Origin: an uncultured delta proteobacterium
Lineage (GTDB): Bacteria; Desulfobacterota; Desulfobaccia; Desulfobaccales; 0-14-0-80-60-11
Length of the DNA: 64,000 nucleotides
Assembly: GCA_963812015.1 (NCBI GenBank)
Contig: CAWETI010000002.1
Location: 864,001 to 928,000 of the forward strand
Reading direction: 5' to 3'
Shown here piece after piece: positions 45,812 through 46,019 of the stretch. How positions within the stretch are numbered: position 1 is the first letter of the stretch; the number at the start of each line of letters is the position of its first letter. The notes under the pieces are model-generated. The model ran no database searches. It was not told the origin of the DNA and saw nothing but the letters and a program-made list of their open reading frames with translations. The translations under genes were made by a program, and so were the position numbers.

Positions 45812-46019
45812 AAAGGGAACCGGTACATAGTTTGGTCATTAAAGAACCAGGCCATCAGGAGCAGTACTGCTCCTGATGGCGGCGTGGCAGGCCGTCCTAA
45901 CCCTTGGTCCTTCAAGACCGCGGTGAGAGCGTGGCCGCCACGTCGCCCTGGCATTAACCCGAACAGTCGCCCGGGCTTTGAAGCCCGTATCTTGCAAGGA
46001 CGGGAGGCCAAGGCTTTTT
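45812..46019 (+). ncRNA. Putative IS110 bridge RNA (copy 2)
   Basis: 5' hairpin, then CCTAACCCT / GAGAG (target guides) and ACAGTCGC / TGCAAG (donor guides), each pair flanking a small stem-loop. Confidence 0.82.

Follow-up and report, generated by a model that had tools for sequence, protein, structure and literature searches.

An IS110-group insertion sequence in the 64,000-nucleotide stretch of DNA analysed here (the window) carries, in the left end upstream of its transposase gene, a predicted bridge RNA whose guide segments would read the element's joined ends and the repeat used for insertion. The comparisons described below support this assignment. Bridge RNAs are known from IS621 of Escherichia coli, where one acts together with a bridge recombinase (Durrant et al. 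2024, PMC11208160; Hiraizumi et al. 2024, PMC11208158). The present element is a genuine IS110-family insertion sequence, canonical for a kind described in 2024, and its guide anatomy is what any IS110-group element is expected to show since then. It leaves knowledge of the mechanism unchanged and adds a natural bridge-RNA system, well documented, whose own specificity has left a readable record. The evidence gathered here comprises the anatomy of the element, the guide matches, covariation, the set of insertion sites and protein homology.

Boundaries, copies and transposase of the element

The element spans 45804..46988 on the + strand (1,185 bp, TGTATG...ACAGTCG; coordinates below are on this strand unless stated) and forms an inverted repeat with a second window copy at 1973..3157 on the - strand, which differs from it by one base and has its bridge RNA domains at 2949-3086. 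Both copies start with TGTATG and end with ACAGTCG. A CT core dinucleotide lies on both flanks of all eight genomic copies; in the + copy the left core (45802..45803) follows the left target (LT) CCTAACC at 45795-45801, and the left donor arm ACAGTCG together with the right core occupies 46982..46990. The junctions read ...CCTAACC-CT-TGTATG...ACAGTCG-CT-CCTCC for the + copy and ...CCTGACC-CT-TGTATG...ACAGTCG-CT-CTCCC for the - copy. The preliminary description of this DNA had reconstructed the targets as CCTAACC-CT-CCTCC and CCTGACC-CT-CTCCC and the donor as ACAGTCG-CT-TGTAT, and the junction reads show all three to be right. Its starting point of 45812 has to be corrected, since the element begins at 45804; position 45812 follows immediately on the -10 box.

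The left end measures 216 nt (45804-46019) and the right end 15 nt, counted from past the stop codon (46974-46988). A long left end and a short right end, the CT core at both junctions and the lack of long terminal inverted repeats are features of the IS110 group. In IS1111 elements the left end is short and the right end long, and the subterminal inverted repeats are long (PMC11208160, Extended Data Fig. 10 legend). We considered membership of the IS1111 group and rejected it because of the lengths of the two ends and the position of the RNA domains upstream of the gene; transposase family and RNA guidance are shared with that group. The guide RNA of the IS1111 group is called 'seekRNA'.

The transposase, a predicted bridge recombinase of 317 aa (46020..46973), matches Pfam PF01548 (E 2.8e-25) and PF02371 (E 7.5e-18), corresponding to an N-terminal DEDD RuvC-like domain and a C-terminal Tnp domain with the catalytic serine. 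Against NCBIfam NF033542, 'IS110 family RNA-guided transposase', it scores 235 bits (cutoff 140); the NCBI annotation model already labels it RNA-guided. Its closest solved relatives are the ISCro4 transposase (PDB 9t56, E 9.9e-38), which scores best and is named here from the PDB molecule name alone, and IS621 (8wt6), to which it is distantly alike (E 8.5e-37 over 306 residues). Alignment and a manual residue count place D11, E55, D97, D100 and S236 opposite D11, E60, D102, D105 and S241 of IS621, so that the catalytic D, E, D, D and S are conserved; the roles of the IS621 residues are those given by Hiraizumi et al. 2024 (PMC11208158). The compact 317-aa recombinase is a candidate orthologue to try in bridge editing. 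At 46780 (IS position 977) the + copy alone has T and the other seven copies C, and Leu replaces Pro at residue 254; aligned IS621 also has Leu there, and the + copy shows the poorest right-target match.

The genome (3.96 Mb, 6 contigs) contains eight intact copies and one remnant. The remnant, a ninth insertion at CCTAACC-CT outside the window (G000:C2:1263945-1264000, about positions 1500-1555 of locus L009), consists of the first 55-56 nt of the left end. It continues into flank sequence at a shared CATCAGG, indicative of a microhomology deletion, and adjoins a 23-residue C-terminal fragment that matches the REP-associated tyrosine transposase model below cutoff. The flank of the remnant is ~89% identical to that of the + copy; since the identity is only this high, the two insertions are independent and younger than their flanks. 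The flanks of the + copy (45560-45803 and 46991-47200) form part of a repeated unit, ~200-400 bp long, whose paralogs at C2:1263707-1264046 and C3:1520158-1520609 are 88-90% identical. The empty paralog at C3:1520158-1520609 was rejected as the pre-insertion sequence of the + copy, being too diverged, carrying indels and lacking a CT core at the site. Directly upstream of the + copy lies a short ORF (45452-45615), the product of which we take to resemble a Flp-family pilin.

A bridge-RNA-like locus of a different type lies at G000:C2:999085-999191 (L106 1501-1607), also outside the window, where our model R1 scores 45 bits. Its left end starts with CT-TGTATCT and its target loop is complete, the donor loop stops mid-hairpin, and no IS110 transposase adjoins it, the neighbouring 337-aa ORF giving weak ACT-domain-like hits only. 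The locus looks like a truncated remnant.

Decay of the kind seen in the remnant and in this truncated second-type locus would be expected if the bridge-RNA element, though genuine, were immobile in the present genome, its copies being fossils or having spread otherwise. The eight copies speak against such a history: the 317-aa ORF is intact in all of them, they are at least 99.66% identical with 0-4 differences from the + copy, and the left end is identical in seven. Two insertions are younger than their flanks, and the exact element was not found at >68% DNA identity among the 40 related genomes searched. We consider immobility very unlikely. The element is very probably an active or recently active IS110-group insertion sequence with, by analogy, an IS621-like mode of working.

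Fold and guide segments of the left end

The left end folds with an MFE z-score of -3.96, and none of 200 shuffled sequences was equally stable. The MFE fold includes a 13-bp 5' stem-loop at 45851..45880, in agreement with the '5' stem-loop' of the published consensus (PMC11208160). We collected 80 related loci, with transposases 47-61% identical, and aligned with MAFFT the last ~135-155 nt upstream of the gene from 22 distinct relatives and the window (23 sequences). RNAalifold finds four helices in this alignment. The first domain is made of a long outer stem and a short hairpin, and the second of an invariant CCC/GGG closing stem and a hairpin. Pairing holds in 92.8% of the alignment cells, and compensatory changes are seen at 15 of the 22 pairs, values that were reached by none of 500 shuffles; controls with slid partners gave 34-54% paired. 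Compensatory changes are found at 11 of the 12 pairs of the target-domain outer stem. In a second alignment of 62 distinct rows, fitted to a covariance model built from the first, the corresponding figures are 96.5% of cells and 19 of 22 pairs, both biased upward because the alignment was fitted to the model.

The covariance model matches 78 of the 80 related loci, in 77 of them immediately upstream of the transposase gene, as well as both window copies and all eight genomic copies. In L068 the only match is cut on its 5' side and lies at the edge of the locus. The model missed L032, which is without the first half, and L054, which is cut by a contig end. A search of Rfam 15 over 45000-47500 with E up to 10 returned noise only (sX15, isrK, mir-H1 and snoRNAs), far below gathering scores, and Rfam perhaps has no bridge-RNA family. 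Two strings from the left-end RNA had no occurrences in seven supplementary files of Durrant et al. 2024, a count that does not imply absence from their data.

Placed on the window, the consensus gives a target-binding loop domain at 45881..45944, with its outer stem at 45881-45893/45933-45944 and an inner hairpin at 45906-45919 (stem 45906-45908/45917-45919), followed by a donor-binding loop domain at 45958..46004, closed by CCC/GGG at 45958-45960/46002-46004 and containing an inner hairpin at 45973-45986 (stem 45973-45976/45983-45986) within the string CGGGCTTTGAAGCCCG (45972-45987). Besides the 5' stem-loop, the left end contains two stem-loops that open into large internal loops. The preliminary description had named guides buried in stems as evidence against its reading; all four lie in unpaired internal-loop columns of the consensus structure from the 23-sequence alignment.

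These helices bear on whether RNA is involved at all. Recognition could take place at the level of DNA, the internal copies of ends and target being protein-binding sites or pairing as DNA. An RNA and the DNA encoding it are indistinguishable by sequence analysis, and the element ends carry inverted ACA/TGT motifs. However, the compensatory changes preserve four helices on one strand, and G-U pairs are common (for example, UG in 16 rows of the model-fitted alignment at one pair), which function in RNA and not in the complementary strand. Homologues moreover work through RNA (PMC11208160, PMC11208158). Recognition by DNA without RNA is thus extremely improbable, and the left end is better read as encoding a folded RNA.

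The strings quoted in the preliminary description were recovered where it had placed them (CCTAACCCT at 45896-45904, GAGAG at 45925-45929, ACAGTCGC at 45963-45970, TGCAAG at 45993-45998 and the hairpin at 45972-45987). The left target guide (LTG), CCUAACCCU (45896..45904), reads as left target plus core and occupies the same frame as the LTG of relatives. It matches the targets of three copies and the remnant at 9/9 positions and those of the other five copies at 8/9, including, as had been described, 9/9 for the + copy (CCTAACC) and 8/9 for the - copy (CCTGACC). The right target guide (RTG), GAGAG (45925..45929), is the reverse complement of the core plus CTC, and relatives have their own RTG in the same frame. 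Its earlier description as the reverse complement of CT-CTC holds for the - copy and five more (6/8) and fails for the + copy (CT-CCT), where pairing is limited to the core and one further nucleotide.

In the donor loop, the left donor guide (LDG), ACAGUCGC (45963..45970), reads as the left donor arm plus the first core base and is identical to 46982-46989. A ninth position (C) mismatches the core T; the IS621 LDG likewise pairs over just 8 nt (PMC11208158). The right donor guide (RDG), CUUGCAAG (45991..45998), pairs with CT-TGTATG through one G-T pair and with one U-T mismatch. The G-T pair with the left end had been noted before and has a counterpart of the same kind in IS621, G161-dT12 at the corresponding place (PMC11208158). 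The first loop matches the target, resembling its top strand on the 5' side and complementing that strand on the 3' side, and the second loop matches the junction of right and left ends likewise, with the core in each match. The order of guides around the CT core (LTG, hairpin, RTG, LDG, hairpin, RDG) is that of IS621, as previously proposed (PMC11208160, PMC11208158).

Two dinucleotides next to the 3' guides are putative handshake guides. CG at 45930..45931 is complementary to the CG at donor positions 6-7 and not to the CC at target positions 6-7, and comparison of its sequence with the published handshake model (PMC11208158) makes it the putative handshake guide of the target loop. In GA at 45999..46000, the putative counterpart in the donor loop, G pairs with target position 7 (C), not donor position 7 (G).

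The weight of the individual matches was gauged by shuffling the mononucleotides of the 216-nt left end 100,000 times and counting each string anywhere. The LTG 9-mer CCTAACCCT appeared in 65 shuffles and the LDG 8-mer ACAGTCGC in 409, which makes chance a very unlikely source of these two matches. GAGAG appeared in 21,515 and a 6-mer able to pair with CTTGTA through no more than one wobble in 19,653 (~20% each). The short RTG and RDG matches therefore carry weight only from their position and from comparative data.

Such data come from the relatives, although their counts overstate independence because many loci are copies from one genome. The LDG 7-mer reappears shortly 3' of the gene in 59 of the 70 loci with enough downstream sequence, followed by CT in 58 of the 59 and preceded by TTGAC in most; a given 7-mer is expected, by arithmetic, in about 2% of 300-nt stretches. 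Five LDG variants occur (ACAGTCG, ACAGTTG, ACACCTG, ACGGTTG and ACCGTTG), each agreeing with the right end of its own element. Among the 11 misses are L019/L020, where comparison of copies places the right end one mismatch from the LDG. The left ends of relatives start with CT-TGTAT or CT-AGTAT, and in all 27 parsed elements the RDG has the corresponding sequence, CAAG or CUAG respectively.

The target side behaves similarly. In 16 of 29 distinct elements, 8-9 of the 9 positions of an element's left target plus core match its own RNA, against 22 of 806 non-cognate pairings, and the structural frame of the best match is the one seen in the window. The match is just 5-7 of 9 in the other 13 elements, for which some left boundaries were set by a simple motif search and could be misplaced. 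In 24 of 27 elements the base directly following the RDG pairs with target position 7, and in none does it pair with donor position 7, the handshake pattern described for IS621 (PMC11208158). Ends located independently, by copy-to-copy comparison in nine multi-copy genomes, agree with the boundaries used; this comparison gave no left boundary for L078/L080 and no right boundary for L049/L050. In these relatives the guides vary along with the ends and targets of the respective element. This covariation supports the earlier proposal of an RNA-guided recombinase with its own specificity.

The same observations bear on a simpler role for the left end, as a structured 5' leader or regulator of the transposase gene that would, for example, occlude the ribosome-binding site GGAGG (46002-46006); the guide-like matches would then be leftovers that guide nothing. 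The closing stem of the donor domain does overlap GGAGG, 13 nt upstream of the ATG and followed by a U-run, and the RTG and RDG matches are short and weak one by one. A leader of this kind leaves unexplained a 9-mer and an 8-mer as rare in shuffles as those of LTG and LDG, guides that co-vary with ends and targets in relatives, and an architecture equal to that of the experimentally proven IS621 RNA (PMC11208160, PMC11208158). We judge a leader without guiding function to be exceedingly unlikely, and retain the predicted bridge RNA.

Predicted junction promoter, proposed cycle and comparison with IS621

The two ends of the element carry the halves of a predicted sigma-70 promoter that would be reconstituted only when the ends are joined. 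The -35 hexamer TTGACA (46970..46975) overlaps the stop codon, and the -10 hexamer TATGTT (45806..45811) lies just inside the left end; across the joined ends a manual count gives a 17-nt spacer. Relatives have TATGTT, TATATT, TATAAT or TATCTT in the same place, and TTGAC at an equal distance from the core in most cases. No promoter-like site was found in the linear, integrated arrangement, and expression would therefore depend on the inferred junction promoter.

By analogy with IS621, from which transcription of the RNA, its binding by the protein and the chemistry would carry over, a cycle can be proposed. Excision would join right and left ends, bringing TTGACA to 17 nt from TATGTT, and the left end would be transcribed from the resulting promoter into an RNA of about 200 nt. 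This RNA would fold into the 5' stem-loop and two stem-loops with internal loops. The target loop (LTG CCUAACCCU, RTG GAGAG) would pair with both strands of CCTAACC-CT-CTC in the host's small C-rich hairpin repeats, and the donor loop (LDG ACAGUCGC, RDG CUUGCAAG) with the joined ends ACAGTCG-CT-TGTATG. The DEDD/serine recombinase would then carry out strand exchange at the CT core.

The likeness to IS621 extends to a long left end, a short right end, a CT core and a sigma-70 promoter split between the ends; to the order of 5' stem-loop, target loop and donor loop; to guides on the 5' sides that read as the top strand (LTG 9 nt, LDG 8 nt), with RTG and RDG on the 3' sides; and to a G-T pair within the RDG, next to which a handshake G would pair with target position 7. 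In contrast, the RNA is predicted at about 200 nt here and is 177 nt in IS621, and the target here is a different sequence, CCTAACC-CT-CTC within C-rich hairpin repeats. The whole element had no match in 5,426 E. coli genomes (blastn, distant mode), and hence the comparison with the IS621 RNA rests on the text of the papers and not on an alignment.

Insertion sites in C-rich repeats

The eight copies and the remnant all sit at sites related to CCTAACC-CT, which agrees with the preliminary description; it had named insertion at unrelated sites as evidence against the guide assignment. The left targets of the eight copies are CCTAACC (three), CCTGACC (three), ACTAACC (one) and CCAAACC (one). The right targets are CTC in six, including the - copy, CTT in one, which pairs through a G-T wobble, and CCT in the + copy. 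Compared with the guide-predicted 12-nt target CCTAACCCTCTC (CCTAACC-CT-CTC), one copy has no mismatch, six have one and one has two. Empty genomic sites number 0 with a perfect match, 27 with one mismatch and 187 with two, so that the element occupies 1 of 1 perfect sites, 6 of 33 with one mismatch and 1 of 188 with two. The occupied sites form a natural data set, albeit a small one, on mismatch tolerance at LT positions 1, 3 and 4 and right-target positions 11-12. The earlier statement that mismatches are tolerated on opposite sides of the core stands as a description of the two window copies; tolerance itself is inferred, not measured.

Most insertion sites fall in two small C-rich repeat families. 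One of these forms a hairpin that starts at the core, CT-CTCCCCC-loop-GGGGGAGAG, and a hairpin runs from the core toward the right-target side at six of the eight insertion sites. A repeat family of the form CCCCTCACCCTGACC-CT-CTCCCC-loop-GGGGAGAGGGG is present in the window at 31121-31160 (- strand) and in about 11 more places in the genome. The window copy contains an unoccupied one-mismatch target, CCTGACC-CT-CTC, at 31137..31148 (- strand). The second family, CCTGCCCCCTCTCCCAAACC-CT-CTCCCCCAACCCC, has 13 empty copies. Together the two families supply most targets of the element.

The right-side C-rich hairpin might act as a second, structural determinant of specificity, a suggestion that we make tentatively and think rather doubtful. 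If true, such a gate would account for the filling of hairpin sites that mismatch the LTG while 16 other CCTAACCCT sites are empty. It would also fit relatives in several phyla that re-aim their guides at other registers of a similar, widespread C-rich repeat.

Stem-loop repeats are targets of other IS110 elements. ISPpu9 of Pseudomonas putida reportedly is an IS110 element present in multiple copies and inserted in a conserved intergenic stem-loop repeat. For ISPpu10 of P. putida, a preprint describes an IS110 element with several copies per genome, all in a conserved intergenic repeat that forms a stem-loop (bioRxiv 10.64898/2026.03.19.712850). The present element shares with ISPpu10 its multiple copies and a target repeat that forms a stem-loop, and the gate suggested here would resemble the one reported for the stem-loop of ISPpu10, though lying on the opposite side of the core: the ISPpu10 stem-loop is described as a GC-rich 5' extension of the target, whereas here the hairpin extends from the core to the right-target side.

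Several related elements (L064/L077/L081, L089, L067-L076, L025, L092 and L033/L034) also sit in C-rich sequences, of the CTCACCCC or CTCTCCCC type. Their hosts are planctomycetes, a gammaproteobacterium, and deltaproteobacterial and actinobacterial MAGs. In these relatives different CT positions are cut, and the guides are altered correspondingly.
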